From Octopus vulgaris (taxonomy: Eukaryota), in the NCBI GenBank assembly GCA_951406725.2, contig OX597815.1, positions 66,464,001 through 66,528,000 on the forward strand: 64,000 bases of DNA, in the 5' to 3' direction. Below the pieces are notes generated by a model. That model did no database searches and was not told the DNA's origin. It saw nothing but the letters and a program-made list of their open reading frames with translations. Every line of letters begins with the position of its first letter. Positions within the stretch are counted from its first letter, which is position 1. The translations under genes and the position numbers were made by a program. Shown here in pieces: positions 10,769 through 62,750 of the stretch.

Positions 10769-12571
10769 ATCATCATCATCGTTTAACGTCCACTTTCCAT
10801 GCTAGCATGAGTTGGAAGATTTTGACTGAGGGCTGGTGAACCAGATGGTTGTACCAGTCTCCAATCTTGATTTGGCAGAGTTTCTACAGCAGGATGCCCT
10901 TCCTAACGCTAACCACTCTGAGAGTGTAGTGGGTGCTTTTTACATGCGACTGGCACAGGGGCCAGCCAGGCGGTACTAGCAATGACCTCGCTCGAATCCT
11001 TTTACACATGCCACCAACTCAGGTGCCAGTAAGACGACTTTGGTAATGATCACGCTCGAATGGTGCCCTTTTACGTGCCACTGGCATGGAAGCCAGTTGG
11101 CTGCTCTGGCAATGATCACACTCAGATGGTGCTCTTGGCACCCTACTAGCACGAGCACAAGTGCCAGTAAGGCGACACTAGTAACGATCACACTCGAATG
11201 GTGCCCTTTAAATGCCACTGTCACAGAAGCCGGTTAGCCGCTCTGTCAATAATCATGCTCGTATGGTGCTCTTTGCACCCTGGCAGCATGGACGCAAGTC
11301 ATCGAATTTGATTTTGATTTTGCTTTTGATTGATTTGATTTGATTTCACTTGCCTCAGCAGGTCTTCGCAAGCAGAGCTTTAGTGACCAAAGAAGGAAAA
11401 GGTTACGTACAAGTGGGCTGGTTACGCCCCTGGCATAGGCCATGAGATTATGCTTTCACTTGGCTTGCCGAGTCTTCTCATGCATGGCATATTTCCAAAG
11501 GTCTTGGTCACTAGTCATTTCCTTGGTGAGGCCTAATGTTCGAAGGTCGTGCTTCACCACTTCATCCCAGGTCTTCCTGGGTCTACCTCTTCCACAGGTT
11601 CCCTCAACCGCTAGGGTGTGGCACTTTTTCACACAGCTGTCCTCATCCCTTCTCGCCACATGACCATACCAGCGCAGTTGTCTCTCTTGCGCACCACATC
11701 TGATGCTTCTTAGGTCCAACTTTTCTCTCAAGGTACTTACACTCTGTCGAGTATGAACACTAACATTACACATCCATCGGAGCATACTGGTTTCATTCCT
11801 TGCGAGCTTACGCATGTCCTCAGCAGTCACAGCCCATGTTTCACTGCCGTGTAGCATGGTTGTTCGTACACAAGCGTCATACAGTCTACCTTTTACTCTG
11901 AGCAAGAGGCCCTCTGTCACCAGCAGAGGTAAGAGCTCTCTGAACTTTGCCCAAGCTATTCTTATTCTAGCAGCTACACTTTCAGCGCACCCTCCTCCGT
12001 TACTGACTTGGTCCCCTAGGTAACTGAAGCTATCTACTACTTCTAGTTTTTCTCCCTGGAATGAGGCGGAAGCTGGTCTCTGTGCATTTTCAGCGTTTAT
12101 TGCTCCTGAGCATCTGCCACATACAAAAACTATCTTCCCAGTTAGCCTTCCTTTGATATTACTGCACCTCTTATGTGTCCATAGCTTACACTGGGTACAT
12201 CTTATAGAGTTTCTACCTACACCTCTACTACAGATTGAGCAGGGCCATCTATCTGAAGGGATTTGTGGTTTGCCTGCCTTCCTACATATTAGGACTTTGG
12301 TTTTAGCTAGGTTGACTCTAAGGCCCTTCGATTCTAATCCTTGTCTCCACACTTGAAACTTTGCCTCTAGTTCTGATAGTGCCTCAGCAATTAGAGCGAG
12401 GTCATCAGCATATAGGAGCTCCCAGGGGCTTCCTGTCTTGAATTCCTCTGTTATTGCCTAGAGGACTATGATAAATAGGAGGGGGCTGAGGACTGAACCT
12501 TGGTGGACTCCTACATCTACCCTGAATTCTTCAGTGTACTTGTTGCCAACCCTCACCTTACTTACAGCATC
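10769..12571 (-). mobile_element. 5'-truncated RTE LINE (RT C-half, PHD-like finger, C-terminal domain, long repetitive 3' UTR)
   Basis: ORF 11456-12352 has GLRVNLAKTKV, FSYLGD, MLHGSETW and LRWYGHV. Upstream the minus strand reads GVHQGSVLSPLLF and LLYADDL. Confidence 0.95.
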
Positions 12572-16850: not shown

Positions 16851-17358
16851 TGTAGTGATGCTACTGTGTAGGGTTCAGCGCGCATGCGCAGAATGGGACT
16901 ACTTCCGGGTGGCCACCGGAAGTCTTCCCCATGCGCATGTGCGGGAAAACGTTCCTTTACCCGCCAAACTCAAATCTACCTCTCCGGCTCCACAGCTCAT
17001 CGCGATCGGACATACATTCAACGGGCTCTGACAACCTCACGACTTAGCCGCCAACGACCATCAACAAACTTCAACAAACTAACAAGAAGCTGCACATCAG
17101 GGGTTGTCCTTCTCCCATCAGACACACGTACGACATCGCAATAAATAAACGAACACACACACATTCATTTTTTTTCCTTTTCTGTATTTTGTTTTCCTTT
17201 GTACACACACACTTATTTTTGCTACCCACGAGGTGCACACACAAACACTACGGTACACAAAACACAATTTTGATTTGCTTTGTCGGTTCCACGTGTTCTC
17301 CCTCCATTTCTTGATCATACCTTCTGCCCCTTTCTCACAGATTCCTTCCGACAAAGGC

Positions 17359-18036
17359 ATGGCTTCAGGTTTGCCTTCATTCACGGGGGACATGGGTCTG
17401 TGGTTTGCCCAGGTGGAGTGGTATTTTGATGCACATGCCATTTCTCCACAGCAGCAGTTGCACCTGCTATATTCCGGCATACATCCCCGACTCGCCGCAT
17501 CGATCAGGGATCTAATAATAAGTCCCCACCCAGACGCCACATACGCGTCCGTGAAAGCAGAAATCCTCCGCCGCAACACACGGTCGGGGGAGAGCAATAT
17601 TCAGGAGCTGATGGCCGACGAGCAGTTGCGGGACAGAACTTCATCCCAGTTCCTGCACCATCTAAGGGAGCTTAGCGGCAATGCAGCGGATGCGCTGCTC
17701 TTACGGAGGATATTTTTCTCCAGGTTGCCTGCCCATGTGCAGACAATGCTGGCCACGGTACTGGAGTCTGTGTCAGTTGATCAGATTGCCACGATGGCCG
17801 ATAGAATACTGGAATTTCCGAATCTATCTCCATCGCGAGGCCTGTATGCATGAATAGGGCCCCCTCCAACAGTTTCCCCTGTGCAAATTTCACTAACCGA
17901 GCAGATCGATGCGCTCACGCGGCGAATCGATGATCTGTCCCGTGCGATCGAGCGCCGACAACGCAGTCGTAGTTGCTCTGCCGAAAGGGCAGATCGGTGT
18001 ACCCAGCCATGCACTTTCAAGCCCTCGGAAAACTAA
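17359..18036 (+). pseudogene. gag: Gypsy gag with one in-frame TGA at 17851
   Basis: MASGLPSFTGDMGLWFAQVEWYF... reads through the TGA in the same frame to CTQPCTFKPSEN*. The zinc knuckle appears partly deleted. Confidence 0.85.
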
Positions 18037-21000
18037 ATCCGGAGGAGGTGAGCACGTCACCTTCTTCCATCTCGTTTCCCAAACATCGTGCATTCTTTGT
18101 AAAAGATCTGGTGTCGAAGAAATTCTTCATGGTGGACACCGGCTCCTGTTGCAGCATCTGGCCCCTTCGTCTGGCTGCAGACAAGCCCAAGCGCTCTTCG
18201 ATTGTCTTGCATGCTATTGACTCGTCTCCCATAACCACTTACGGTCAGATTTCGCTGCGCCTCGACCTCAACCTTCGTCGGGACTTTCAATGGGTTTTCG
18301 TCATCGCTGACATCCCGCATCCTATTCTCGGCGCTGATTTCCTGGATAGGTTTAATCTGTTGGTGGATGTCAGGCGTCGGAGGCTTCTTGATAGCATGAC
18401 GTCGCTCTCTACACCGACTGGGAGTTCCACCACTGCGGTCCTTAGCCCGACATTCTTTGTTGCCACCTCAGAGACCCTTTTCACTCTCTTTTGGTTTCAT
18501 TTCCGGAGCTAGTGGACATTGCCTTTAAACCGGAAAAGCCTACCCACTCGACCCTCCATTTCATCACCACCAATGGGCCGCCTGTATTCTCACGCCCCCG
18601 GCGCCTTGCGCCAGACCAACTAAAAACGGCCAGGGCCGAGTTTGAGCACATGCTTCAACTTGGCCTTATACGCCCCTCCACCAGCCCATGGGCATCTCCA
18701 CTTCATTTGGCGCGAAAGGGCGAGTCTGATTTTCGCCCGGTTGGAGACTATCGACGCCTCAATGCCGTAACTATAGCCGACAGATACCCGATTAGAAATC
18801 TCCGGGACTTTACGGCAAATCTCCATGGTTGTACCATTTTTTCGAAGGTCGACCTTATACGCGCGTACCATCAAATACCGGTCAACCCAGCCAACGTTCT
18901 GAAAACTGCGATCACTACCCCCTTTGGGTGTTTTGAGTTTTTATATGTGAGTTTCGGTTTACGGAATGCTACTAGCACCTTCCAGCGTTTCATTGATGAG
19001 GTTGTCCGCGGTCTTGACTTTGTGTTTGCCTATGTCGATGATATACTCATTGCGAGCGACACACGTGAAAATCATCTCCAGTACCTCTCTCAGCTTTTTC
19101 AGCGTCTTCGCGCTTATAGCATATGTGTAAATCCCGACAAGTGTATTTTCGGACGCTCTTCCCTAGATTTTCTAGGCCATCATATTGATTCGACTGGAAT
19201 CAGCCCCCTCTCGTCAAAAGTCGATGCCATTCAACGCATCGCACCCCCCACTTCCTTGCGCCAGCTCAGGCATTATCTAGGGATGATCAATTTCTACAGA
19301 CGTTTCATTCCCGGTTGTGCAGATAAGCTGCTACCTCTCACCAGGCTATTAAAGGACTCTCCTAGAAAGGACAGTCAAGTCACCCTCTCTGTTGAGGCAG
19401 TGACAGCCTTTGAGTCCATTAAGAAGGAGCTGGCTTCTGTTTCTTTGCTTGCACATCCAGTTCCTGGTGCTTCTCTCTCTTTGACTGTGGACGCATCGGA
19501 CACTGCGATTGGCGCTGTGTTACAACACACAGTGGATGATCATATTCGACCTCTAGCTTTCTTTTCCCGTCAACTGCAACCAGCTGAACGACGATACAGC
19601 ACCTTTGATCGTGAGCTCCTAGCGATCTATCTATCTATCGGTTCGTCATTTCCAGCATCAACTTGAAGGGCGAGATTTTGTGATCTATACGGATCACAAG
19701 CCCCTTACGTTTGCCCTGTGTTCAAAAACGGACAAACTCTCACCCCGTGCTTTTCGGCACCTGGATTTTATCTCTCAATTCACTAGCAACATTCGACACA
19801 TACCTGGAAAAGAGAACGTTCCTGCTGATGCTCTCTCTCGCCTTCCAGTTTGCGCCCTTTCGTCTCTTGCTGCTATCGACTTAGCTGCCATCTCGCAGGA
19901 GCAGCCACCTTTGGCATCGTTAGACTTAACTTTTTCCAAGTTCTCCTGTTGCCAGTTTTCCTACCTTCTGCTTCCGTCAGCCGAAGGCACCATTCTTTGT
20001 GATACTTCCACTGGTTCTCCCAGGCCACTGGTGCCTGAGAACCATCAACGCTCAGTGTTTGAAGCACTGCACTCCTTATCACATCCTGGCATCGCTGCCA
20101 CCCTTAAACTAATCACTGGTCGGTTTTTCTGGCCGAATATGCGTCGCACTATTACTTCTTGGACACGCACCTGCTCCAAGTGTCAACGGTCCAAGATTCA
20201 ACGGCACGTTCGTGCCCCGCTTGGACAATTTCCCCCCACGGAGGCCCGTTTTCGCCATGTCCACATCGATCTGGTTGGACCATGGCCTGTGAGTCGCGGG
20301 TTCTCTTATCTGTTAACTTGTGTCGATCGCTTCTCCCGCTGGCCAGAAGCCATTCCAATAGCAGACATTTCTGCTGAGACTGTTGCGCGAGCTTTCGTTT
20401 CAAACTGGATTTCTCGCTTCGGAGTCCCGTCCCGATTGACAACTGATCATGGACGTCAGTTTGAGGCCTCGCTATTTCGTGAATTGTCGCGAATTTTGGG
20501 TATGCACCATATCCACACTACAAGCTACCATCCAGCGTCTAATGGACTGGTTGAGCAGTTCCATAGACAGCTCAAGGCCGCTCTTCGTGCCTCTTCAGAC
20601 CCACAGTCCTGGATTGAATTTCTGCCCATTGTGCTTCTCGGCTGTCGGACTGCTGTCAAGGCAGACCTGGGGTTTTCTGCTGCAGAGCTGCTGTATGGTA
20701 CCACACTGGCATTGCCTGGTACGATGTTGGTGCCAGACACTTCCCAGCCCCATGATCCGGCGACCTATGTCACCAGACTGCGTGCATACTTTTCGAACCT
20801 TCCACCCATGGTTCCCAGAAAGCAATCTCCACCGTCCCATCTTCCACCGGATATGAACACCTGGTCGCATGTTTTTTTTTCGGGACGACTCTGTGAAGGG
20901 CCCACTTGTTTCTCCCTATAAAGGACCTTTCCGTGTGCTTTCTCGCACACCAAAGGTTTTCACGATTGAGATAAATGGTCGTTCGGAGACCGTTTCCGTG

Positions 21001-27737: not shown

Positions 27738-29169
27738 TAGCACTAGGAAGAGTATCCAGCCATAACTATGCCAAAAGAGACAGTGGAGCTCAACACACCC
27801 TCTGACCTGTTGGACCCTATCAAACCGTTCATTCCATGCTGGCATGGATTGAGCAGTTTGACAAAATCCAACATTATTAACCATTTGTTACCATACTTCT
27901 GTTTAAATACACAGCCTTTGTTTCAGTTAATTTTTAAAATAATAAAGGATTTATTAAATAAATTTTTCATTATTAAGTTGATGTTTGGAACATAAATGAA
28001 CAAGAGATTTTGATGGAAAGTTTTAATTAAGGTCATTTTATAATAGAAAATTTGTATCACAGAACCAGGAGTGCCTAAGAAGGGTTAGTATCAAAAGCAT
28101 TAATGGAATAAATAAACAGTCACATTTTCTAGTTCCTTTTTTTAAAACATCAAATAATTGAAGAGAAAGGACATTAATTAAAAGTTGCATTGTTAATAAA
28201 TAAAAGAGCTTTCTCAGAGGATCTTCCTTTTTTCATAGTGTTTGCTTTAAGACAGGCTCTCAAAATTGTGGAGGTAACTCCTTAAATGGTTGCAGTATCA
28301 TAATTTGGTTAAATTTGCCTATGATAAACTTCATATACCAGAATCTTAATAGTTGGCACTGTTACAATAGATTTTGAATCATTAAATGTCAGGTTTCTTT
28401 TCTTTATATGAATCATAGAACTTCGCCCACATTACGCTTCCTTTTGATTACTTGACTATAATAACAAAGGATCAGAAGTTTCTAGTCATGTCCTTAGGTT
28501 TCATCATAGCATATATCAATGGCACAATCTCCAACATTCCTTCTATCAATTTGAGTATACATTATGGGTTAATTATCTATCTTACACTTAATTGCCCTCA
28601 TCACATTCACCCAATGTGTTAAATATTTCTCTGATATTTAATTGCCCTAGTGACATTCATCTCTAACGTCATACACTTTGTTAACAAGACCATAGGATAC
28701 CTCCTCTCTTTCTCATCCTCAGCCCTTATTCATACAAAAATTCAACACTTTTCAGTAGGTGTGTATACTGTGTGAACAGAGACTCAAAAAATGGCCAACA
28801 GTGGAGGTATGGTAACCTAGTTACCAAAACAGACAATATATAGTAACAAGAAAACAGTTCTCATTACACCTAAAGCCAATTGGATTGTCTACAGATGTTA
28901 AAGACTTACAATCTCTAAAGGCTTTCATGGCAACCACTGGTGAAATAAATATTGAAGATGCTTTGCCCCATGCAGAAACTGTTGGGTTACTCAGATGTAT
29001 TGCAAGCTCTTCTAGATCCATCACAATGTCAGAAACTCTTCCATATCATCAGCAGGTATCTCAGAGTGATAAGCATTTCATTCCTTAACCTGTACACTTT
29101 ACCTGAGTGGGGCAGTGAGGACATTATTTTTTGCCTGCAGAAAGGTTCCATTTCCAATCAGACAACCAC

Positions 29170-29402
29170 AGCCACCTTGAGCAGGTTTCAGCTGCCATGC
29201 CAATTTTAGGCTTTCTTCAGCTGTTTGGGTTCCAGGCCAGTTGTCTACAGAAAATAGCACACCAATCTTGTGGCAAATCCACAGCAATTCACTTCAATAA
29301 GGAATGAGGCTGCATGCCATTCCTTGACAGAGGTCTTATTAACCAAGTCCTGATATTTTTTTAGCTGATGAGGAATATCAAATCTGTCCTCCCAACAGCA
29401 CA
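29170..29402 (-). mobile_element. Non-LTR retrotransposon remnant, restriction-like endonuclease (RLE) domain, split by the pogo element
   Basis: CWEDRF...KKYQDLV...WHAASFLIEVNCCGFAT matches the RLE signature E-x(n)-KY...W...EVGxRG. It continues briefly beyond 31088. Confidence 0.7.
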
Positions 29403-29404
29403 TA

Positions 29405-31086
29405 CCATGTTTCCCCGAAAATAAGACTTGGTCTTTAATAATTTTGCATCCAAAATCCGCATTAGGGTTTATTTCTGAGGAATGTCTTAAATTTTTGCGG
29501 AAAAAATCCAAGAAAGACAAAAAGTTTCATGTCCTCATGTAAAAGGAAAAAATTGTAAAAAGGATACCTATGATTTTACTTATCAAAAGTTAATTTATTT
29601 GCTTATTGTTTTTAGTCAAGTAGAAACATTTTGTCCTCTTCTGGAACATAGTCATAAATCATCAAACCCTGAACTTCAGACTGAATGTCTTGCAAATCCA
29701 CTTCTTGTAGAATCATGGACTCCAATCTCTCATGCTTGGCAATATAATTTTCCTTAAATGAACACTTTTTGTCCAAGTACCTTGCTTGTAGTCCATTGGC
29801 AATGCGACTGTCAGTAATTTTATTCCATGAATTCCTCACCCAATTCACAACTTCTTTGAGGATGGGTTTGACAAAGTTTCCACGCTGATTTCTCTCCATT
29901 CTATGTTTGATATAGTCATTCACTTCCATCTGCAAATAATCCTTGAAGAGCTTGTTTATTACAAGACCTAATGTTTGTAGATATGAAGTCATTCCCATGA
30001 GAATCATTATGTGGTCAATTCTTCTTTTAAAAATGAAGGTTTACATATTTTTTGCAGGATGAGTACTGGCCAAATCCCAGAATAAAAGACCTCTTGAGAA
30101 CCATGTAAAACAAGTGGCATAGTTAAAATCAACTCATTTTCTTTCTAACAGCTTGTGTGCACCAAGCCTTTTCCGTTTCAAGGACATAAATGCCCGAAAC
30201 GCATTCTATTTTCTCTTTTTTGGCCTTTGTGATAAGACAAATTGGTAAAATACAAGTAATTCTTGCACTTTTGTAACCCATTGAGGCAATGTAGATTGAT
30301 GAGGCACTTGTCTGTTCAACAGTCATTTTAGATCCTTGGCCTATAAATACTGCAGTCTCATCCATAGCAATTATATTGGAGAGATTGTATTTTAAAAAGT
30401 CAATACCATCAATGAAGGACTTGAATGCAAGTCCACGTTGAATCACTTCAGCATCCTCCAGCTTGAACAGTGTTGTCGATCTTATTAGAGAGAGCTCATA
30501 TCACTAAGGGAAGTTATCCAATCAATGAGTGATGCTTTGAATATCTCTGGGGGTATATCTGACTGTGGTACCATTGCAAGAACAAATTCTTGAATATCAA
30601 CCCTATGTACAACCAAAGCCTTTGTTCTTCTGTCAGCAATCCATCCCGGAGTGATATCTTCCAGCTCCAAAAATAATGGTTGTCAACCTGATACAAACTT
30701 GTGCTTCTTAGCACTTCCCTCATCTAACTGTCTGCTGAGATTATTGTACTCTGCTCACCATTTTCGAACCATTCAGAGATCTAACATCATCTCCTTACAG
30801 ATAGCCGTAAGATTCTTGTTATGTGACTCTATCACAATTCCTTTCTTGTACTCCACAGAATAACTCTTTCTTTCTGCACTCATCTTTTCTGGGGGACAAG
30901 GGAGTCAACTCCGTGTATGCTTAGTGCAGACTTTAGCCAAGCTGCGCTAGTAGGCTTACTTTGCAAACATCACATGGTCTTGCTAACAAGCTGATGCATT
31001 TTTGACTAGGTCTTATTTTGGGGGTAGGGCTTACATTAAAAACATTCTGAAAAATCATGGTAGGGCTTATTTTCGGGGAAACATGG
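29405..31086 (-). mobile_element. pogo/Tigger DNA transposon with decayed transposase
   Basis: Perfect TIR ccatgtttccccgaaaataag with TA TSD. Minus-strand MSAERKSYSVEYKK...VRKW (Brinker-like), CENP-B-like HTH, AMDETAV, and GMTSYLQTL...INKLFKDYL. Confidence 0.93.
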
Positions 31087-31398
31087 TAGCTAAGTCTGCA
31101 TCACAGAAAATACTCCAGCCATTGCACTGTTAATGCTTTGTAAGATAATTTATATTTATAACGGCACTGTCACCATGTTCTGGTGGTGACAAGTATCAAA
31201 GAAAACATGAAGGTTTAAGAATATTTTGATTCTTCCTCAGATTAAATTACACAAAAAAGTCTATACACAGAATGTAGTTCTTCTTTGCTGATTTCTGCTT
31301 TTGCAATAAGGATTTAAGAGATGCATGCAGCCCACAAATAACCTGGCCTTTATAGTTTCCTGTTTAGTTAGTAAAATTCCTTCAGAAGTAAAATGCAT

Positions 31399-34300
31399 TC
31401 ATATTTGGTAAAAGCAGATAGCACTATCACCTTCAACAAATTGTCCAAACAAAATCAAACTGAAATCTGCAGCATGTAAATCGTGAACTGTAATAATTTC
31501 TCTATTGTCTGTAGTGATATATCTCTCGCAATAACCATCAATGGAGACACGATATATGATACCATACCAGTCAAAGTAGTAAGCATACTGTCCAAAGGCT
31601 GTGATTCGTTTTGGATTTCCAATTACAGGTACTACTATTATCTTGATGATATCATGGTTGAACCAACAAACTGAATCTTTACCTTGAAATTCTCCACTCA
31701 CTACAACATCACCAGCTAACATCACAGCTATATCGTATATAATACCATCAGTTATATCATTCTGACTCTTGTAAACATAAGTGCTATCTTCAATGAGCAA
31801 TATATCTATACAGGCACCACTATATATCTCACTGCTCCCTAATCTATTTACTCCACCTCCTCTACAACATACCAAGCAATTATTGCTGGTTTTGCCAATA
31901 TACTCATAGCTTTTGTCTGTACAGATTCTTTCCTGTAAAGAGAAATCAGAATTATAAAATACAAATTGTTTTTCTGAAGGAAGACAAAAAACAAGACTCT
32001 CCTGCTTCCATTGACAAAGGTTACTAACTTCAGCATCAGTTTTGAATTTGTGTAAATTTTCAGATGTTTCCATTGCTGTTTCTTTAGTTCTTACTACTAT
32101 TACATTGTCATTATAACTTACAACCATTTTATTGTTGTCCAGAAGAAGAAAATGTGCTCCATAGTGAGAGGTTTCTAAAGTTTTATCTACTGAATGAGGA
32201 ATGCAAACAATTTCCTTTCTCCGTGGCAATTTCCTTACTGCTACAATATTTGATCCCTCTCTACAACTTGCAATATAATCACCAGCTTGTTTGAGCAATC
32301 TCTTATTACAATTTCTGGATCTTTTTATAGCTTGGATGTACAAATCTGGACTATTTCGCAATTTCCTTTCTTGGTTAAATCTATTTTTCTCTTCTTCAGA
32401 ATTGAACCAAAACTGATATTCAGGATGTTGGATAAGCAGAATTTTCTGAATAATTACAATAGTGTTATTATTTTCTATTTTAACAAGATGACATTCAGTT
32501 GATTCTAAATCCTGACACCAATAATGATTGTGGATTTTTCGGTATATTTTACAATATGGTATTTCAGTATTAAATACCCTCTTAACACTTAAAGTGTTTT
32601 TACTCAACTCATGTATTTCTCTTATCTGGGGAACAGTGATTAGAATATTCCCTGTCTCAATGAAACATAACCCTCCCACTATGAAATTAATTTTCTTGTG
32701 ACACAAAAACAATCCACCACTTCTAAAACATTTAACAATGTCATTCTTTCTGTCATAGATAACAATCTGACCTCTCTCAGATACATCAAAATCTTTCACT
32801 TGTACTGGGAAGTTATCACATTGGAGATGAGATACTGAAAATATTTCTCTATTAAGAGACAACAATCCTTCTGTATAAAGATTATTGCTACTGTTGACCA
32901 TAACAAATCGTGGTCCCCGACAGTTCATAGCAGTTAACACTGATTCGTCAATTAACTCATGCGGATGAAGAAACATGCTGTGATATTTGCCATCCATCGA
33001 CAAACGTGTGACCCTGTAATAGTAGTCAATTGGTTGACTTGTTATTATGTAAATATAAAGTTTATCACTAGTGATACTAATAGGCATGGACATATTAAGA
33101 GGAGTTACTTGCTTTGTGATTTGACCATGGATATTTAAGAATATTACTTCACTAAAAGTATCATCTTCATCATAACAGTGAACCACTATTTCATCATTGG
33201 GAGTAACTGTCATATCATGAATAGTTTTCCTCCTTATTTCATTCCAACCATTTATGTGCTTTTCCATAAAAACAGATGATTTTAAATCAACTATACTTAG
33301 ACCACAGCTTCCATTGTCTGTCCAGCTACATACTAAACGTCCATCTGAGAATGAAGCAATGCATCTGTAGTTCTTACATGTTTTAAAGCTGACATATGTT
33401 AAAGGAAACTGAACTTGAACTGTTAACAGTTTGTCTGTGTTGGTGGAAATAGCAAAACTATTGGATAAACAACGACAAATCCCTGTAGGTGATGAGTTCA
33501 AATCCAACGTATCAATTAGTTCACCCTTAAAAGTTAATATCTTTATGCTGCAGTTGTTTTTATCACAGATTACTATTAAATTGTTATCTGTAATTAACAG
33601 AGCTGAAATAATGATCCTCTTTGTGTCTTTATAGGTATGTGGTACTTGATAGACATGTTTATTTAATGTCATTGATATATCATGACGATGTACTACAGAT
33701 GATAATGTATCAGTAACAACTGCTGTACAGGAGAAGATATCAAGTTGATCAATGAAAGATTTAAGCTGCTGGCAAGACACATAATCACAAACCATTAATG
33801 TTTCTTCATTGAATGAAAGCATTTGTGAGTCATCAATTAAATATATGGCTGTTTTGTCAGAACATACATCATACAGACATCTTCCAGAACCAAATTTGGG
33901 ATACAAAATAGTAGGAGAACCACAAAAAGAAGTGTTGTATTTCAACAATTGACTTTTGGTAAGTGCCAGAATATTGTTGTGCCACAAATGTAAAGATCTG
34001 ATATAACTGGGACATATAGCTAAACGTCTGGTTGGTTGTTGACTAGTGAGTTTTATTGTAACTATATCTAGACACTTAGATTTGTCACAGTAGCAAATAG
34101 CCCTGTCATTGTCTAACTTATGTATGAGAACATATGGCTGTTCAAAAGATCTTACTCTAATATAATTTGAAACATAATCAAAAATCCAGAGTTGTTTTTC
34201 AAGAGGTAATGTTAATCCTAAATTGTTGCAATCCCATCGACAGATATCAGTAATTGGAGATGGTACGCTAAGCTGATGGTTAATATTTCCTTTCTTGCAA

Positions 34301-36423
34301 CATAGTAACAATTTATTTTCTCCCCACTCAGCAATAGCTAACTGACCATTGGGCACAAGACATACAGAACCAATAATAGCTTTGATTTGATTTTGGTCAT
34401 CATAAATTATATCAGTGCTTGTGGTATCTTTAAGAGTCTTCACTGGAACTTGATACCCATCACCACAAAGAAATTTATAGCAATGAAGTATACTGTTTAT
34501 TGGGTCCACAATGGTAACTGTCCCTTTCTGAACACCAATTACTGGCAGAAAATGACGTGGAATTTTCCACTCTCTCTTTAGCTGTCCAAATATATTATAT
34601 ATCTTAATTGAGTTGTTGTTAGAAATTATATAAAAATAAAGGATGTCTGAATACACTTTCCTTGGCTGTTCAATCACAGGAAGCTGTATTTGAAATAATT
34701 GTTCTCCATCAGTAGAAAAAACCACAAGTTTTTCATCCATTTTGTCCACTACCATTAAATTGAGTGGGGAGGCTGCAATGGAGACATTTCCATGCTCCAA
34801 ATTTATAAACTCAATAGGTTCAATTTTACTTTCTGTCACACATATGATATGTAGTTGAGCTTTATGTCCATCTACTAAACATACAAATTTGTCAGATATA
34901 ATATGACTAATTTGGATGTAAATTTCACTTGCAGTCGCTTGTATATTTGTTGCAACAAGATTATAATTGTCCCAGGAGATCTTTTGGAATTTCCTGCCAA
35001 ATGAAACAATGATCTTGTCCTCAGCCCATCGAGAGACATCAATCAAAGGTGATTCCAGGGTTAAAGAATGTTCAATAATTTTCTTTTCATCACGAAGAAT
35101 GAGTAACTTTATGAAATTTTCTAAATAAATAATTATAAAACAATGTCTTGATATTGGTATTACAGCCCTTATATCACGTGCATTTTCAATATCTAGACTG
35201 GTGAGATACCTTGGACTTTGATTATGAGAAAAATAGGTTTGTCGTGGCCAGAAATTAGGGGTGATAATTTGATATTTAAAATTACTGAATAAAACAAGAT
35301 TGTTTTGGTGAAGATAAATCTTTTGAGGAGTTCTTTCAACTATTCTCTTAGAAATGCCACCAAATTCTGAAACCTTGAAAATATTATTGTTTTCAAAGAA
35401 ATAGAAATATTTTTGGTTGGCTACAATTTCTATCAGTTTATCATTGAATGGAACATCAAACTGGAATAATTTTCTGCCCTGGAGATTATAACAGGTAACA
35501 CAAGGAATGATACTGAAAGCCACCAGAATAAGTTTTCGAGGTCCAACAGCAATTGATGAAATGAAGTGATTAATGTTAAATAAAGCGTGTATATCTCTTT
35601 GAATCCAGTCCACAAGGTAAATGGTTTTAGAAAACAACTTCACACCAACAAATTTTGTTCCTTCTACATAGGAAAGTTTATAAAAACCATGGTCAAGAGT
35701 TATCAATTCCAGACTGAAAGGATGAATTAAGATGATTTTATTCCTGAAAGGAAGACTTCCCATAACAGTATGCTCTCCCACTTGTGTCATATCTGTGATG
35801 GGAGAGTTAAAATAGTAAGTTTCACAAAGTCCATCTTGATTAATGTAATTTATAGACAAGCTGTAGGAGTCATAAATGACAGCAACATCATAAAGCATCA
35901 AAATCTTTGTTATATTAATAAATGATAACTGTTCAGAAAGAAGGTTGAAATTCACAAAATGAGTTGTAATTTTTTGAAGTGGTCGAAATTTTACTTTGTG
36001 ATGTAACATTTGAAATGGTGGGTTTGAACCATGATGGATTTTGCTCAATTTCTTTAAGTAGCAAATGGTTTTTGGCAGACTTGTATAATTCCATGAGGCA
36101 ATTCCCCTTATAACTGATTTTATCTTCACCAGAGCTTTCTTGTGAAACTCTGAATCACTTACATTATCTCTCATAGCAAATAACTCACAAAGGAAATTTG
36201 TTAAATATATTTTACGCAAATCAATTTGATTATTAATCCATAGATTACAACCTTGTTTTTCTGAAACAATTTTAGTAATTGTTTTAAATGAAGCTTTTTT
36301 TCTTACTTTATGTGGAATTATATCTTCCAAACTTGGTTTAGAAATGATTTTACGTGATGCCGTTTTTTGTACTTTACTGGGAATCATACAATCCAAACGC
36401 GAATGTTTTCGCTTTTGTGACAT
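31399..36423 (-). CDS. Uncharacterised 1674-aa intronless protein with about six tandem NHL/SGL-like beta-propeller units and a basic N-terminus
   Basis: A 5-kb stop-free frame with no mobile-element motifs. Blade motifs (SPITDIC.W, G.L.I.D..N..IK, Y..I....LVC) recur about every 250-270 aa. The first in-frame ATG is at 36423, after an in-frame TAA. A splice acceptor (polypyrimidine tract plus TGTAG) is at 36593. Confidence 0.9.
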   Translation of the reverse strand: MSQKRKHSRLDCMIPSKVQKTASRKIISKPSLEDIIPHKVRKKASFKTITKIVSEKQGCNLWINNQIDLRKIYLTNFLCELFAMRDNVSDSEFHKKALVKIKSVIRGIASWNYTSLPKTICYLKKLSKIHHGSNPPFQMLHHKVKFRPLQKITTHFVNFNLLSEQLSFINITKILMLYDVAVIYDSYSLSINYINQDGLCETYYFNSPITDMTQVGEHTVMGSLPFRNKIILIHPFSLELITLDHGFYKLSYVEGTKFVGVKLFSKTIYLVDWIQRDIHALFNINHFISSIAVGPRKLILVAFSIIPCVTCYNLQGRKLFQFDVPFNDKLIEIVANQKYFYFFENNNIFKVSEFGGISKRIVERTPQKIYLHQNNLVLFSNFKYQIITPNFWPRQTYFSHNQSPRYLTSLDIENARDIRAVIPISRHCFIIIYLENFIKLLILRDEKKIIEHSLTLESPLIDVSRWAEDKIIVSFGRKFQKISWDNYNLVATNIQATASEIYIQISHIISDKFVCLVDGHKAQLHIICVTESKIEPIEFINLEHGNVSIAASPLNLMVVDKMDEKLVVFSTDGEQLFQIQLPVIEQPRKVYSDILYFYIISNNNSIKIYNIFGQLKREWKIPRHFLPVIGVQKGTVTIVDPINSILHCYKFLCGDGYQVPVKTLKDTTSTDIIYDDQNQIKAIIGSVCLVPNGQLAIAEWGENKLLLCCKKGNINHQLSVPSPITDICRWDCNNLGLTLPLEKQLWIFDYVSNYIRVRSFEQPYVLIHKLDNDRAICYCDKSKCLDIVTIKLTSQQPTRRLAICPSYIRSLHLWHNNILALTKSQLLKYNTSFCGSPTILYPKFGSGRCLYDVCSDKTAIYLIDDSQMLSFNEETLMVCDYVSCQQLKSFIDQLDIFSCTAVVTDTLSSVVHRHDISMTLNKHVYQVPHTYKDTKRIIISALLITDNNLIVICDKNNCSIKILTFKGELIDTLDLNSSPTGICRCLSNSFAISTNTDKLLTVQVQFPLTYVSFKTCKNYRCIASFSDGRLVCSWTDNGSCGLSIVDLKSSVFMEKHINGWNEIRRKTIHDMTVTPNDEIVVHCYDEDDTFSEVIFLNIHGQITKQVTPLNMSMPISITSDKLYIYIITSQPIDYYYRVTRLSMDGKYHSMFLHPHELIDESVLTAMNCRGPRFVMVNSSNNLYTEGLLSLNREIFSVSHLQCDNFPVQVKDFDVSERGQIVIYDRKNDIVKCFRSGGLFLCHKKINFIVGGLCFIETGNILITVPQIREIHELSKNTLSVKRVFNTEIPYCKIYRKIHNHYWCQDLESTECHLVKIENNNTIVIIQKILLIQHPEYQFWFNSEEEKNRFNQERKLRNSPDLYIQAIKRSRNCNKRLLKQAGDYIASCREGSNIVAVRKLPRRKEIVCIPHSVDKTLETSHYGAHFLLLDNNKMVVSYNDNVIVVRTKETAMETSENLHKFKTDAEVSNLCQWKQESLVFCLPSEKQFVFYNSDFSLQERICTDKSYEYIGKTSNNCLVCCRGGGVNRLGSSEIYSGACIDILLIEDSTYVYKSQNDITDGIIYDIAVMLAGDVVVSGEFQGKDSVCWFNHDIIKIIVVPVIGNPKRITAFGQYAYYFDWYGIIYRVSIDGYCERYITTDNREIITVHDLHAADFSLILFGQFVEGDSAICFYQI

Positions 36424-36592
36424 TTTTAACAATTTTCCAGATTCTCCTTCCTTAAAATTCAGTTCATATTCCAATGCTTAAACCGATTTCCATTGTTGTT
36501 TACTAAAGATGATATATAAAAATTATGTCCATCTCAAAAGGTTGGCTTCATTTCTTCTAATGCGCACATGGTCAACTTCCAACAAGAATATA

Positions 36593-36620
36593 CTACAATA
36601 AATAGAAGGAAAGAAAGAAT
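36593..36620 (-). promoter_or_regulatory. 3' splice acceptor of the large coding exon
   Basis: Minus strand attctttctttccttctatttattgtAG, so the exon would begin at 36592. Confidence 0.65.
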
Positions 36621-39365
36621 TGCAATGGAAATTAAAAAGAAAGACAGAGAATAGAATATGTTAGTTTGGCATTAAGTTTAACAATTTATGGACAAGATAA
36701 TTATTATCTAGATTAGGAAGCTAAATATTTAATGGCTATTTATTTTTTATCTATTACCTTCAACAATTTATATAACAGAAATACTTGAATCCTTATTGAT
36801 TTACTGATAGATTAAAATATTGAAACAACAATAATTCTTATAAAGAATTATCTAAGCAGGAACATTAAATATGTACTTATATATGTATACATAACTAGGT
36901 TTACAAAAAGACAAAGAAGATAAGATAATAAAGAGGTAAGAAAAAGGAAAATACAGGGAACAACATAAATATTAGACTCTGAATCAACAGACACACCGGG
37001 AGATAAAGAGTAACTAGATTGCACTTATTACTCTTTGGTCATTGACCCTACATACTCTTGCTGGGTGGGTTGTATGTAAACCCACAGAATTTTTTCAGAG
37101 CAAGACAAAGATATGTAAACTTGTAATAGGATTAATTCATATACTCTATGATGTCACATGCAGAAGAACAGTTGTCAAAAATCTATAAAATTCTATATCT
37201 ATCATCATATCGTGTTTATTATAGCCCCTTATGTCTCTATATCTCCTTCTCCACTGCTCCTACAATTTGCGCATAATCCCACCTCTTTCTGATCTATTCC
37301 CCTTCTTAAGCCACTCCTATATCTCCCATCTCACCCCTCTCCATATTGGTATTTCCCTTTCAACTGTACCCCCACCTTAGTTCCTCACTCATATTAAACT
37401 CTACCTACACCTGTTTATTTCCCCCTCACACTCTTATGAAAGTATCCACTCTCTCATCCCCTTTAACCCTTTGTCTTTTAAACCGGCCATATCTGGCCCA
37501 AAATATTCTACCTGTTTTACATTCAAACTGACTGGATCCAGCCTCTTACATTAATCCTACAATGCCATGCTAAAAATAAACAATAACATCATCAAAATCT
37601 CAAAGCTACAAGATAATGCATGAGTTATTTAAATCAACATAAATAAATAAGCATTACACTTCACAAAATATTCTGAATACTAAAGGGTTAAAACTACTAA
37701 GTACAAATAGGGAGAAAAGCCCTGCAGTGATGGAGAAGTGCCAAAATGACAGGTACTGGATAGTACTGGCAGTTGCGGTCCCAACCCTACATGTAAGCAG
37801 CTGCTCTTCCTCATGATCTTCTGACAGAAAGAACTGCCATCTCTTTCTCTTTCTCTCTGTCTCACACACACACACACAAGACATTGAGGGAAAGAGAAAT
37901 GTAGTGACAGTCAAGAAACATATGAGTGTGCATATATGTGTGCATTATATAAGTTGATAGTCTACTCCAGAGTTTTGCTCAAGGATAAGCTGTTCATGAC
38001 TGTGAAGTTAAAGTGTTTGCAATTTTTTACAAGGATAGGTAGACTTTAAATGTATCTAGATGGGTAGGATAATAAAAGTTTTTGGATATTAATTCTAAAG
38101 ATGTAAGGATTGCATTACAAAGTTATTAAGACGTGTGCTTGTATGTATGGGTAGGGATACTCTTACTCTCTTCTAATTGTAAAGCAGCATCTTGAGACTT
38201 AATTGGAAATTTTGTAGGTTAAATTTTGGGGGTTGACCGTTGTTCTGGTTCAGAGAACAAGGCTTAATTGGAATTTTTGAAGTGCATACCTGGATATATA
38301 TGGATTACTATATGTGTATTGGTGTAATTGTGTATCTGTATACATGTTCCCACTATTGCTTTTTACTGCGTTGTCCCTGGTTCTCTACTGTTACACTGCT
38401 CATTTCCATATCTCCACAATATAAGTTGTCTTCATAACTAATTCTTTTTGTGGTTGTTTGATGTATTGTACTTACATACCTTTCTTTCCTTCTCCTCAGT
38501 GTTCTAAATTTTCTTTTAACTATCTTTTTTAGTGGTTATAAGAGGAATACATCTATTTTCCTGTTAGATATTATAGCTATATGGGGTAGTGAAAATGGAG
38601 AGAAGTAGAAAAAGAAAGAGGGTGAGGAGAGAATATACCTTGAATATACAGAGAGAATGTTACCCTGATATCAATGGCTATTTTAGAAAGATGTGAGAGA
38701 TGGAGTTAAGTAGCTAGCAATAAGTGAGGAGAGAAAACAAGGAAAAGGACATGACAGATAGAGAGAAAGCATGAATACAAGAGAGAAAGAGATGGGAAGA
38801 GGGGGACAAAGGGTATACATGCTCTCTGAGAATGAGAGTGTTATAAAGTGTCTCTACATTGTTTGACTTTTCTTCTGGCTCTTTGTATTCAAACTCCATC
38901 AAGGTCAACTTTGCTTCCCATTTCTTTGGGGATCAATGAAATAAAATATTGGGGTTTTACATAATTGACTTGCCCCTCCTGCCAAAATTACTGGCCTTGA
39001 ACCCTGCGACAGATGTGTTCAGGAGAATGTTATGATCTCAGTGACTTCTACACCATAGAAATAAGGTAACCAACCTTATGAATCTTAGGGCAAGAAAAAA
39101 ACTTTTTTGAAAATCATAGTTTGACAGCCGAGAGAGAGAACCCAGAAGCAAGTCTTGTGGAAACTGGGTGGAGGAGTATGAATATGACATCGCTGGTGTT
39201 TGTATGTTTTTTGATGCAAACTATGATTTTATAAAGTACATATCTGACTGTTTCTGATTCTTGTCATGAAACTTATTTTTATGAAATAAAATCAATAAAT
39301 ACACAAAAAATATATAGACCTAAAAGAAATCAGTCTTATGTTACATATTTGAACATGTACATATA

Positions 39366-46681: not shown

Positions 46682-48513
46682 ATCATCATCATCATCATCG
46701 TTTAACGTCCGCTTTCCATGCTGGCAAGAGTTGGACGATTTGACTGAGGACTGGCAAGCCAGATGGCTGCACCAGGCCCCAGCCTGATCTGACAGTTTCT
46801 ACAGCTTGATGCCCTTCTTAACACCAACCACTCCAAGAGTGTAGTGGGTGCTTTTACGTGCCACCAGCACAAGTGCCAGTAAAGCGATGCTGGTAACGAT
46901 CACGCTCAAATGGTGCTTTTTATGTGCCACTGGCACAGGAGCCAGTCAGTGGCCCTGGCAATGATCATGCTCGGATGGTGCTCTTAGTGCTGCCATCGAA
47001 TTTGATTTCGATTTCACTTGCCTCAACAGATCTTCGCAAACAGTTTAGAGTCCAATGAAGGGTATGCACAAGTGAGCTGGTTACAACCCTGGCATAGGCC
47101 ACGGGTTATGGTCTCACTTGGCTTGCCAGGTCTTCTCAAGTACAGCATATTTCCAAAGGTTTCGCTCACTAGTCCATTGCCTCAGTGAGGCCTAATGTTC
47201 GAAGGTCATGCTTCACGACCTCATCTCAGGTCTTCCTGGTTTTACCTCTTCTACAGGTTCCCTCAACAGCTAAGGTGTGGCACTTTTTCACACAGCTATC
47301 CTCATCCATTCTCACCACATAACCATACCAGCGCAGTCATCTCTCTTGCACACCACATCTGATGCTTCTTAGGTCCAATTTTTCTCTCAAGGTACTTACA
47401 CTCTGTCGAGTATGCACACTGACATTACACATCCAGTGGAGCATACTGGCTTCATTCCTTGTGAGCTTATGCATGTCCTCAACAGTTATGGCCCATGTTT
47501 CACTACCATGTAGCATGGCTGTTCGTACACATGTGTCATACAGTCTATCTTTTGCTCTGAGCGAGAGGCACTTTGTCACCAGCAGAGGTAAGAGCTCTCT
47601 GAACTTTGCCCAAGCTATTCTTATTCTAGCAGCTACACTTTCAGCGCACCTTCTTCCACTACTGACTTGGTCACCTAGGTAACGGAGGCTATCAACTACT
47701 TCTAGTTTTTCTCCCTGGAATGAGGCGGAAGTTGGTCTCTGCGCATTTTCAGTGTTTATTGCTCCTGAGCATCTGCCACATACAAAAACTATCTTCCCAG
47801 TTAGCCTTCCTTTGATATTACTGCACCTCTTATGTGTCCATAGCTTACACTGGGTACATCTTATAGAGTTTCTACCTACGCCTTTTCTACAGATCGAGCA
47901 GGGCCAACTACCTGAAAGGATTTGAGGTTTGCCTGCCTTCCTACTTATTAGGACTTTGGTTTTAGCTAGGTCGACTCTAAGGCCCTTTGATTCTAATCCT
48001 TGTTTCCACACCTGAAACTTCTCCAGTTCTGATAGTGACTCAGCAATTAGAGCAAGGTTGTCAGCATAGAGGAGCTCCCAGGGGCATCCTGTCTTGAATT
48101 CCTCTGTTATTGCCTGGAGGATTATGATAAACAGGAGAGGGCTGATGATTGAACCTTGATGGACCCCTACCTCTACCTGGAATTCTTCACTGTACTCGCT
48201 GCCAACCCTCACCTTACTGACAGCGTCCCTGTACATGGCTTGCACAGCTCTTATACTAACCATTCATCTATCCCTAGTTTCCTCATTAACCACCAGATAA
48301 GGAACTGGGGGACCCTGTCAAAGGCTTTCTCCATGTCAACGAAAGCCAGGTACAGAGGTTTATCTTTGGCTAGGTATTTCTCCTGCAGCTGTCTTACCAG
48401 AAATATAGCATCAGTGGTACTTTTCCCTGGCACAAACCCAAACTGCATCTCATCTAAACTGACTCTCTCCCTAATTCATTGGGCTATGATCCTCTCTGTG
48501 ACCTTCATTACCT
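46682..48513 (-). mobile_element. 5'-truncated RTE LINE
   Basis: QFGFVPGKSTTDAIF, FVDMEKAFDRVP, GVHQGS, LLYADNL, PHD-like finger and (GAT)n tail. Confidence 0.95.
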
Positions 48514-48965: not shown

Positions 48966-51538
48966 ATAAATGAAAGAATGGAGTCGAACGAAGATGTTAA
49001 CAAAATTCCTTTACTCTCGACACATGTTTCGAAGACAGCATATTTTCATTCCAAAGGAATAAAGGGTGCATTATGCAATCTTCTCATCAGGAAAGAAAGG
49101 GAGCCTCTCTCAACAAGACACACAAAAATTTCGATGATTGCCTACATGGTAAACAAAGCGATAATGAGTGTTTTTTTTTAAAAATCCGTTAGAAGAATTG
49201 ACGTCAAAAATAGATAGTAGGAGGAAGAGAAGGGATAAAGTAATAATAGGTAGGGAACAGTATGTTTGCTGTATGTATGGAAATGTGTGGGTGTGTGCTT
49301 GTGTTAATGAGTGCGTGTGTTTGTGTGTGTGTATAACTGCATTTGTGTCTGTGTGTGTGATTTTGTGTGTGAGAGAGAGACATCCGTCAAAGATAGATAG
49401 TAGGAAGGGAAGGTATAAGGGAATAATAGGTAGGGAACAAGTGGAGAGGGAAGGGTACGTTGATTGAAAGAATGTTCCAAGGCTTAGTAAAGAATTTCTC
49501 TATAGCAGTGGGGTGGACGTGAAGCTAATTGTTCAAACCACAGTGACTATCGTTATCATTTATATGAGTAGAAAGTGTGTTTCTGCCAGTGTTTACATTT
49601 GTACGTTTTTCTATGAGTGTGTTTACTAGGGGAACCTTATCGAAAAGAATATGGAAGAGTTCAGAGTTACAAATGTTACAAAATCTCCTGCCCTTATTAA
49701 AAGGAAAGGATACAGACGATATGAACCAATCTAACTTGAAAATTATATTGTTGTCTTTAAGACGCCAAACTAATTTACTTAGCCCTGTACTATGTCGTTT
49801 TTTCCTATCCCTGAATGTTGAATAGTGGTTTGAAATTCTCTTGGATAACTGGGAAGTGGACACTCCTATATAGAAGACATCGGTACCAGAAGAAATTCTA
49901 CACTGGTAAATGGAATTCTTAATCTTAGAATTACTAGACAAAAATTTAATTCTGTTGGGGTTGTCCTCCGAGATCGAGACGAAGTTTTTATTGTTATGAT
50001 TGTTGTTACTATTATTATTAGCGCTAACAACTACACTATTTCTATTATTATTAGTATTATTAATGGTATTACAACCAGCAATACCACCGACAATAATACC
50101 GTTATTGTTGTTACCATCAACACTACCATTGTTATTAACACGATTAATACTATTTTTAATATTATCATTGTTAACACTTTCGCTGCTACTAATGCTGCTA
50201 CTATTAATACTATTCCTATTATTATGATTGTATGATGGGTTGGAATTAGCAAGATTAGTGTTGGAACTCCCGGGTGAAGAATCTTTGTTTAGCAGCTTGG
50301 TATTGTGGGAAGATATAACTTGTGAACGATTCCTAGTGTTAGAGAAAGCTATTCTGACCTTGTGGGAATTGATAATAGAATGATATCTAGAATTTCTGGG
50401 AAAGTTCCTAGCAACGGCTTCACGGAACTGTAAGGGAAGGTTCGATTTAATTTGTTTTCCGAAAGGTATTACAAACCAGATACAGTTTTTTGTGGCCTTT
50501 GAATTGTTCTTACAGTTGTTTGTGATAGTAAGGGGAAAATTTCTGGGTTGGAAATTTGGGGTTGCATGGTGCTTACCTCCCCTAGTCCGTAAAGAATTTA
50601 TTTTATGTACAGGGTTGCTGGCACTATTAGAATTGAAATCATTATTCCTATTACGAGTAACTTTACTATCTGGAGAAGCAGATGTTGGTTTAGAATGAGC
50701 TGGGTTGATGTATGACACTTTCTCCTTATAACCGGCTCTTGACAAGGCGGCGTTATAGAAGTCTGCCTTTTGGTTAAAGATGTCGACATTAGCAGATAAT
50801 TTGGACAGTCTCAGAGATATGTTTTTAACTAAATTATCGGTAATTGGCTTGGCATGATTACTGAAAATGCTGATATACTTAAGATTAGTGGAAGGTTTAT
50901 GATAAAACCGGCAACATATATAAGCTTACCAAGAGCCATTATTTAGAACTGCTCAAAAAGGAGATACATAAGAATTACAGGACCACCAGTAGGAATACTC
51001 TCAGGCAAACCAACTTAGAAACTAAGCAGATTATGGAGACTTACGGATTACAGATGAAGACGGAACCATTGAACCCCAGGCAACCCAGATTCATCTTAAA
51101 GGACCACAAACAGAACTTTCATACTAACCCAGCATTGCGGCTCATATGCCCTTCCAGTTCAGACATCGGTACCCTTAGTAAATACATATTAGATAAGTAT
51201 ATCCCTATATTAATTAATAAATTAAAACTTAGCTTATGGTCCAATTCTGTTCAAGTCGTAGATTGGTTTACTTCTATTACTGATAAGGCCAACACTAAAT
51301 TTATCCAATTCGATATATCTAGTTTCTATTCTTCAATCAACCCTATTATACTTAATAAGGCCCTATGGCACGCACACAATAAGGCAGGCCTCTCCAGGGA
51401 GGAAATTAGTGTGACATTGACTGCTAGGAAATCTTTCATCCAGTTCGATAGCAAGTTGTGGGTCCGTAGAGATACCCCTAATGCGTTTGATGTACTAATG
51501 GGACGTACAGACAGCGCCCAGATAGCCGATTTGGCTAT
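48963..51538. mobile_element. Penelope-like element (Naiad-like) with inverted 5' segment
   Basis: Minus strand about 50915-49525: RT thumb/linker (YHKP..SNH, IWF..PF) and GIY-YIG endonuclease (SIY..YIG..KRISNH..STGLSK.VW..CNIC.E). Plus strand about 50918-51538: RT N-half (LKDHK, RLICP, FDISSFYSSI, FDVLMG). Both ends abut TA/CA microsatellites. Confidence 0.9.
49008..49100 (-). ncRNA. Type I hammerhead ribozyme in the PLE 3' region
   Basis: cctttctttc CTGATGA gaagattgcata...tatgctgtcttc GAAA catgtg TC gagagtaaagg. All three helices pair and helix III is palindromic (ACATGT). Confidence 0.88.
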
Positions 51539-61845: not shown

Positions 61846-62750
61846 CAGCTCTACCTCAACAAAGCTGTCCTTAAGGAAGTCAAGCAACATAACCTATTTC
61901 TTTACAACCCACAAGGGGTTAAAAACAGAGAGGACAAACAAAGACAGACAAAGAGACTAAGTCGATTACATCGACCCCAGGGTGTAACTGGTACTTATTT
62001 AATCGAGCCCGAAAGGATGAAAGGCAAAGTCGACCTCGGCGGAATTTAAACTCAGAACGTAACGGCAGACGAAATACGGCTACGCATTTCGCCCGGTGTG
62101 CTAACGTTTCTGCGAGCTCGCCGCCTTACGTTAAGGAAGTCAAGCAACATAACCGTAATCTCTTAACAATATGGCTAGACTACAAGAAGGCGTTCGACTC
62201 AGTACCTCACTTATGGATGATAGAATTAGTACACCTTGCCAAAGTACCAGCTGCTATAGTGAATGCCATTGAAAGACTGGCCACATGGTCCACCCAGGTA
62301 TCACTGATAACTACTAAAGCAACAGAATTAAGCTATCAGCAGGCATATTCCAGGGTGATAGTTTATCTATGATGTTGTTTGTACTGGCAGTGAACCCCGT
62401 ATCAGCCCTGTTAACGAAATGCCAAGGTTACATACTGAGATAGGCAAAAAAGAATAAAAGTAATATTATTCCGACATTTTTTTGTTGATGACCTAAATCA
62501 TAATCTTGTAATACGAAGGACATCTTTTTGACAATTAAAACTAATCACAGCATTCTCACAAGACATAAGAATGTAGTTTGGACAAGATAAATGCTCATAC
62601 ATGATAATCAACTGAGGAGAAATTCTCGTTCAGAGAGCATGTACACCACTGGCTTGTCTATCTCCCCTAACAGTAATGATGAAAGCTACAAGTATCTTGA
62701 AATCGACGAGAATGTTGGATACGTTGGTGTTGTGACTAAAGTCAGATTAG
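61846..62750 (+). mobile_element. Decayed non-LTR RT (R4/Dong-like), split by a SINE
   Basis: WLDYKKAFDSVPH, GIFQGDSLS, FFVDDL, FSQDIRM.FG.DKC and YKYL. Confidence 0.8.
61895..62130 (-). mobile_element. Young Nin-domain SINE with 24-bp TSD
   Basis: ttaaggaagtcaagcaacataacc is duplicated at 61871-61894 and 62131-62154. Confidence 0.92.

Follow-up and report, generated by a model that had tools for sequence, protein, structure and literature searches.

The window examined here, a stretch of 64,000 nucleotides from Octopus vulgaris, carries a conserved gene that branches deeply within an octopod family of proteins built from six propeller units. In the clustered paralogs of this gene, the top face of unit 4, which is the predicted ligand face, is under diversifying selection. 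Birth-and-death copies, positive selection on the ligand face and exchange of domains are found together in the cluster, and the window copy is conserved.

The window gene and its transcript

The coding sequence is a single stop-free frame of 1674 codons, as given in the preliminary description of this DNA, and a frame of this length has a chance probability of approximately 1e-59 at the local base composition. The gene and the parts of its product are as follows.

36593-36640 (-), polypyrimidine tract and TAG acceptor site, likely of an intron in the 5' UTR (sequence; contig ends)
31399-36423 (-), coding sequence, 1674 aa in one exon (stop-free ORF; Octopus bimaculoides orthologue gap-free over the full length)
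36262-36423 (-), aa 1-54, basic N-terminal tail of low confidence with a duplication of 22-aa period (sequence), possibly a nuclear localisation signal
36031-36261 (-), aa 55-131, predicted four-helix domain, swapped among paralogs (model, pLDDT approximately 45-73 per block)
35248-35976 (-), unit 1, predicted six-bladed NHL-type propeller (model; TRIM-NHL profile 98.3%)
34459-35226 (-), unit 2, predicted six-bladed propeller (model; TRIM-NHL profile 97.1%)
33658-34401 (-), unit 3, predicted propeller with approximately five blades modelled and the sixth at pLDDT <50 (model; TRIM-NHL profile 98.4%)
32854-33657 (-), unit 4, predicted six-bladed propeller, the unit nearest to the ancestral NHL domain (model; structural match to the Brat NHL domain)
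32224-32826 (-), unit 5, truncated, predicted to have three blades, then an insert of low confidence and a single closing blade (model)
31402-32211 (-), unit 6, predicted six-bladed propeller (model; TRIM-NHL profile 98.9%; rows 17 and 46 of the VIA list)
28000-31398 (-), likely long 3' UTR of at least 3.4 kb with a decayed DDE transposase remnant (X8 contig; DDE_1 match)

The gene had been described as intronless, which is correct for the coding part, but an intron in the 5' UTR is most likely. A pyrimidine tract with TAG is located 170 nt upstream of the ATG, the first exon base downstream of the acceptor being 36592, and one contig in each of two runs from different studies (X1 and X17) stops at 36594, with 13 and 305 non-matching letters, respectively, which is the pattern expected from splicing to an exon outside the compared stretch. 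The segment from the acceptor to the ATG has five short upstream ORFs, and an in-frame stop located 18 codons before the ATG blocks an upstream coding exon at the observed acceptor. The contigs come from four small runs, three presumed to be RNA, one unlabelled and none recorded as RNA, and they span 28000-36594. One of them (28000-31994, run X8) bridges the stop codon, extending from inside the ORF to 28000, and the likely 3' UTR includes a DDE_1 match at 29615-30040 (E 1.6e-4). These observations hint at, but do not prove, splicing of the window gene's transcript and a long 3' UTR. A CpG scan for a promoter of this gene gave no clear candidate. Four variants inside the ORF (31715, 34126, 35065 and 36099), two synonymous and two amino-acid changing, are common to X1 and X17.

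Elsewhere in the window, the remains of an LTR retrotransposon in several frames (DUF7041, reverse transcriptase, RNase H and integrase) occupy a GC- and CpG-rich segment at 17149-20921 (+), and two copies of a retroelement fragment that encodes a reverse transcriptase followed by a PHD finger are found at 47337-48263 (-) and 11459-12457 (-). A stop-free frame of 466 codons with no Pfam match at 49528-50925 (-) adjoins a reverse transcriptase-PHD fragment and possibly belongs to the same element, and a further weak reverse transcriptase match is at 61923-62369. C2H2 zinc-finger genes were seen at two of all the loci examined, just left of the window (L121:2229-4361, -) and beside one paralog (L019:8422-9753, -).

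Architecture of the protein

The protein is predicted to consist of a basic tail and a four-helix domain followed by five full NHL propellers and one partial propeller. Two AlphaFold2 models were built, one of aa 45-1190 (mean pLDDT 64, pTM 0.34) and one of aa 655-1674 (mean pLDDT 70.5, pTM 0.43), and at these low pTM values the spatial arrangement of the units is not predicted. Units 1, 2, 4 and 6 are all-beta in the models, with approximately 23 strands each and pLDDT near 80. Six tandem propeller-like units had been proposed, with repeated propellers in a predicted structure as the test, and both the models and the profiles show them. The proposed unit starts fall within approximately 55 nt of the model-based boundaries, and the motifs quoted in support of the repeats were located at aa 207, 458, 722 and 977, with further copies at 1248 and 1465. 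There are thus six homologous units, but unit 5, noted earlier as shorter, is a partial propeller in which approximately two blades are missing according to model and profile, and it aligns to the TRIM-NHL profile over 95 columns only. Self-BLAST of the protein revealed no internal similarity, and profile methods were needed. When profiles of the paralog alignments were compared with one another, 7 of the 15 unit pairs exceeded 80% probability, and the 15 reversed controls reached at most 3.6%.

The duplicated motif reported in the N-terminal tail is real, with copies at aa 14 and 36 (period 22 aa, 39/60 nt identical). Of 43 family members, 29 have a basic motif within the first 80 aa, compared with 17% of body windows, and the tail possibly acts as a nuclear localisation signal. 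The four-helix domain (aa ~55-131), which the model places ahead of the propellers, was missing from the earlier layout of units. It is modelled as four short helices and gave no match to a profile of TRIM coiled-coil regions (0.4%), that profile being shallow. A Pfam search of the N-domains found no family common to more than one of 14 members, and comparison with solved structures, where the domain was searched as part of a longer model, returned generic helical matches only. Neither a signal peptide nor a membrane span is apparent, as had been stated, the N-terminus being basic and the highest 19-residue hydropathy, 1.8, being located in beta-strands.

Relationship to NHL propellers

When unit 4 was compared with 48,161 representative chains, the best match was the NHL domain of Brat (Z 26.2, rmsd 2.7, 250 residues aligned), followed by Mei-P26 (Z 24.3), TRIM2 (23.7), TRIM71 (23.2) and PknD (23.2), and PAL scored 22.0. 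These structural match lists bear mainly on unit 4, the other units being barely covered. Against a profile of ten TRIM-NHL-type domains, each of the six units scores 94.6-99.8%, and because these domains were picked from matches to units 1-4, only units 5 and 6 are independent tests. The Pfam NHL model scores 21.2 bits (cut-off 20) on aa 45-1190 and 18.5 on the whole protein, a sequence search of solved structures retrieved TRIM71 only (E 0.8), and a search of the Atlas features returned NHL clusters at 0.79, which is a lead only. Foldseek matches to proteins with several propellers (LRP2/LRP4, ROS1/Sevenless and DDB1) were rejected as generic (8-11% identity, TM 0.12-0.17, rmsd approximately 30).

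The earlier proposal that a TRIM head has been lost is supported. Pfam found no RING or B-box in the window protein (P0001) or in 24 aligned family members, the Cys/His pattern is present in the first 250 aa of 0/43 family members, and the 17 B-box matches in the genome (73/73 candidates scored) include none on contig C28, the nearest to the window gene being approximately 25 Mb away on contig C2. Nor was there a Pfam match to a NACHT or NB-ARC NTPase, for which the models leave no space, or to EGF or FN3 spacers, and no catalytic, ligase or NTPase domain was found in the family proteins.

Origin and distribution

A profile of aa 45-1190 was compared with 1.84 billion representatives, yielding 48 matches, 27 at E <1e-10. 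Twenty of these 27 were identified, 19 as Octopus or Argonauta family members and one as a cuttlefish RING-B-box-NHL protein, and the remaining seven are short fragments. The cuttlefish protein (CAE1315789.1, P0029) is the best match outside the family (E 4e-12) and is matched by unit 4 only. As far as sampled, full-length relatives appear to be confined to Octopus and Argonauta, in line with the suggestion that the gene is lineage-specific, the absence from squid resting on one profile search. The orthologue in O. bimaculoides (P0088, LOC106882419) shares 93.8% identity over 1674 aa with no gaps, and other close relatives are P0087 from O. sinensis (99.6% over 1118 aa) and P0003 (85%).

A molluscan TRIM-NHL propeller had been suggested as the source of the units, and the cuttlefish match, the unit profile matches and a locus in the same genome all argue for this origin. 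That locus, L115, was the best of eight same-genome B-box loci tested against the unit profiles (unit 4, E 2e-15) and runs from B-box to NHL in one 634-codon frame; L114 was weak and the other six gave no match. Tandem duplication of an NHL segment encoded by one exon of a molluscan TRIM-NHL gene may have produced the six units, with loss of the ubiquitin-ligase head, and we would date both events to the ancestor of Octopus and Argonauta or earlier.

A further locus, L111, with a B-box frame of 1838 codons, was considered as a headed ancestor and rejected as it has no family propeller inside. Its frame (L111:3471-8984, +, contig C21) includes a RING and a B-box and has a long C-terminal part without a Pfam match at E 0.001.

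Multi-NHL proteins occur in other organisms too, e.g. P0045, and what appears unreported is the six-unit architecture with its expansion and selection pattern, not multi-NHL proteins as such. A search of the open literature for the family or its locus identifiers found no description, and the main text of PMC9068888 does not contain the words propeller, NHL or TRIM, though its supplements could list such arrays. The family has probably been overlooked, as Pfam barely detects its members and databases label them uncharacterized.

A clustered gene family

At least 103 distinct related loci were found (111 of 199 candidates scored), and a second search gave a similar result and added short fragments. 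Most are on contig C28 (81 loci), with eight on C27, seven on C31 and one each on C1, C2 (the window gene), C4, C9, C25, C29 and C39. Among the 100 loci examined, 33 have one unbroken frame, 36 having passed a loose rule from which three with a 5' frameshift were dropped. The other 67 are split and may be real pseudogenes or assembly errors, and copies that are 98-99% identical may be alleles that were assembled twice. Homopolymer errors as the sole cause of the broken copies were unsupported, as such indels are the only ones in 3/67, and many of the indels listed are alignment artefacts. Frame breaks recur near profile positions ~350, 465, 597, 961, 1086, 1570 and 1623 in several split loci (L018-L110), and common ancestry, conversion and error hot spots are candidate readings of this recurrence. 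Extra short frames that repeat the last blade region after the stop, up to twice, are present at L015, L016, L017 and L036, and L030, L091 and other C31-type copies form a subfamily that starts at the first propeller without an N-domain.

No member is more divergent than the window protein, which shares 30-32% identity with each of the 33 intact copies. In a tree of 37 sequences, with six near-duplicates dropped and a midpoint root only, it branches deepest, outside the Argonauta protein. Among the paralogs, L042, L055 and L060 have N-domains of three types that are 16-40% identical and units 1-3 that are 94-95% identical, the extreme being L042/L060 (16% in the N-domain versus 94% in units 1-3). 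Such dissimilar N-domains on near-identical bodies indicate exchange by recombination.

Selection on the top face of unit 4

PMC4015489 describes the ligand face of the Brat NHL domain as the top face, formed by the b-c and d-a loops. The models served to sort codons into top (b-c and d-a loops), bottom and core classes, the assignment of loops to the top face being predicted. The analysis covered 23 intact copies of a young clade and left out ten intact copies that are older or more distant. Purifying selection is seen in units 1-3 (omega 0.35, 0.59 and 0.49, respectively), and whole-unit omega for units 4-6 is 0.76-0.99. Within unit 4, omega is 1.89 for the top (LRT 20.6, p 6e-6) and 0.30 for the bottom. 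The unit 4 top is the only one of the 18 classes significantly above 1, the value for the unit 5 bottom being 2.1 (p 0.07). After gap-free realignment and removal of gap-flanking sites, the top of unit 4 remains at 1.50 (p 0.026) and the bottom at 0.31, and the realigned top value exceeds those of all 60 random site sets.

Using our own implementation of M1a/M2a, the LRT for unit 4 was 220 with 13 sites above 0.95, of which seven are in the top, four at strand ends, two in insert columns and 0/47 in the bottom. As M2a was significant in the other five units too (LRT 10.6-96, with the 17 sites of unit 5 lying off the top face), part of the tree-based signal may be due to gene conversion or base errors. 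A count that itself uses no tree was made in seven disjoint close pairs, themselves picked from the tree, and gave pN/pS of 2.5 for the unit 4 top (p 3e-6) and 0.31 for the bottom (p 8e-4).

This signal comes from the paralogs and not from the window gene, the conservation of which was assessed by protein comparison. The selected sites that could be mapped are identical in P0088 (11/11) and nearly so in P0003 (10/11), 78/81 positions of the unit 4 top are identical to the O. bimaculoides orthologue, and the protein is evenly conserved.

Possible roles of the family

The reading that we favour, and hold to be somewhat probable, is that this RING-less, NHL-derived family is a repertoire of intracellular binders in which the top face of unit 4 recognises a changing target of pathogen or selfish-element origin. 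Unit 4 would have stayed the ligand-binding module, its top face meeting a moving target in the cell, and the other units may provide a scaffold, co-binding surfaces or avidity. The swappable four-helix domain could couple binding to a partner or effector, and, as these proteins have no RING, any ubiquitination by them would depend on a partner. For the window copy, in which the sites variable in the cluster are fixed, binding of a constant ligand or a host partner is likely, in a founder or helper role. A bolder version, which we consider rather doubtful, is that a TRIM-NHL gene gave rise in octopods to a system of intracellular receptors for immunity or against transposons. It would comprise about a hundred proteins of six propellers, with antibody-like hypervariable loops on a single propeller and interchangeable four-helix signalling heads; the window gene would be founder or shared helper, and the logic would be NLR-like without an NTPase.

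An alternative that overlaps with the favoured reading, differing in that it names RNA as the ligand, is that the propellers, unit 4 above all, bind RNA as Brat and LIN-41 do, diversification following the transcripts of transposons, viruses or the host, with the nucleus or germline as possible sites. The RNA-binding NHL domains of Brat, Mei-P26, TRIM2 and TRIM71 are the top structural matches (Z 26.2, 24.3, 23.7 and 23.2), NHL RNA-binding surfaces evolve fast according to PMC5908797, and basic N-terminal tails are accompanied by 7-9 arginines in the unit 4 top loops of the three cluster copies counted. By residue count, the charge of the top loops is mixed among the paralogs. However, propellers that do not bind RNA are within 3-4 Z units (PknD 23.2 and PAL 22.0), and the top loops of the window protein are neutral to acidic rather than electropositive (net +1, -5, +1, -4, -4 and -5 for units 1-6 by a crude residue count), which weakens Brat-like RNA binding for the window copy. 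Overall, RNA as the ligand seems unlikely to us.

It could also be argued that the window gene has a housekeeping or developmental role as a scaffold, the cluster being mostly a decaying by-product of segmental duplication, with variation arising from drift and gene conversion. The 67/100 broken loci, the whole-unit omega of units 4-6 and the even conservation of the window gene would fit, but drift does not produce pN > pS on one face together with strong constraint on the other in the tree-free pairs, and units 1-3 are under purifying selection, making this account improbable. Reproductive proteins are often under positive selection, and diversification could accordingly serve self-recognition or reproduction (a gamete, germline or neuronal identity code, like the octopus protocadherin arrays) instead of defence. 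Large lineage-specific tandem arrays are a known coleoid pattern (PMC9068888), though a surface code is excluded for proteins with no signal peptide or membrane span, and descent from a TRIM gene also speaks against this role, which we regard as very improbable.

Work on cephalopod genomes stresses protocadherin, C2H2 and other arrays, and the present family, of at least 103 loci, adds a clear arms-race signature. As a candidate for variable recognition inside octopus cells it is concrete, with the domain and the face to test named and natural variants alongside a conserved control gene, and it is an example of one NHL exon turned into a new multi-domain protein.

Comparison with known systems

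The TRIM-NHL proteins (Brat 1Q7F, Mei-P26 7NYQ, TRIM2 7QRV, and TRIM71/LIN-41 9JUR and 6FPT) share the six-bladed NHL propeller with unit 4, approximately 250 residues aligning at rmsd 2.7-3.3. In contrast to them, the octopod family has no RING, B-box or filamin domain, has six units rather than one, and has a top face that is diversifying across about 100 copies, the top loops of the window copy not being basic. With the head absent the family is not a member of the TRIM-NHL group, but it is built from the NHL module of that group. The molluscan RING/B-box-NHL proteins (CAE1315789.1 and L115) have the blade-2 motif in common with it, and the profile matches all six units, but they keep the head and have one propeller where the octopod proteins are headless with six units. 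Several propellers per chain are also found in LRP2/LRP4, ROS1/Sevenless and DDB1, with which only the building block is common, and the receptors of the LRP/ROS1 type, unlike the octopod proteins, have EGF or FN3 spacers and are secreted or bound to the membrane.

Plant NLRs and fungal HET-E WD40 proteins are variable receptors of intracellular immunity, the hypervariable part being a repeat or propeller face. The octopod proteins differ from these in having no NACHT/NB-ARC and in using NHL instead of LRR or WD40, and the likeness is in evolutionary behaviour only, namely copies that are clustered and often broken, selection that acts on the ligand face, and N-terminal domains that are exchanged.
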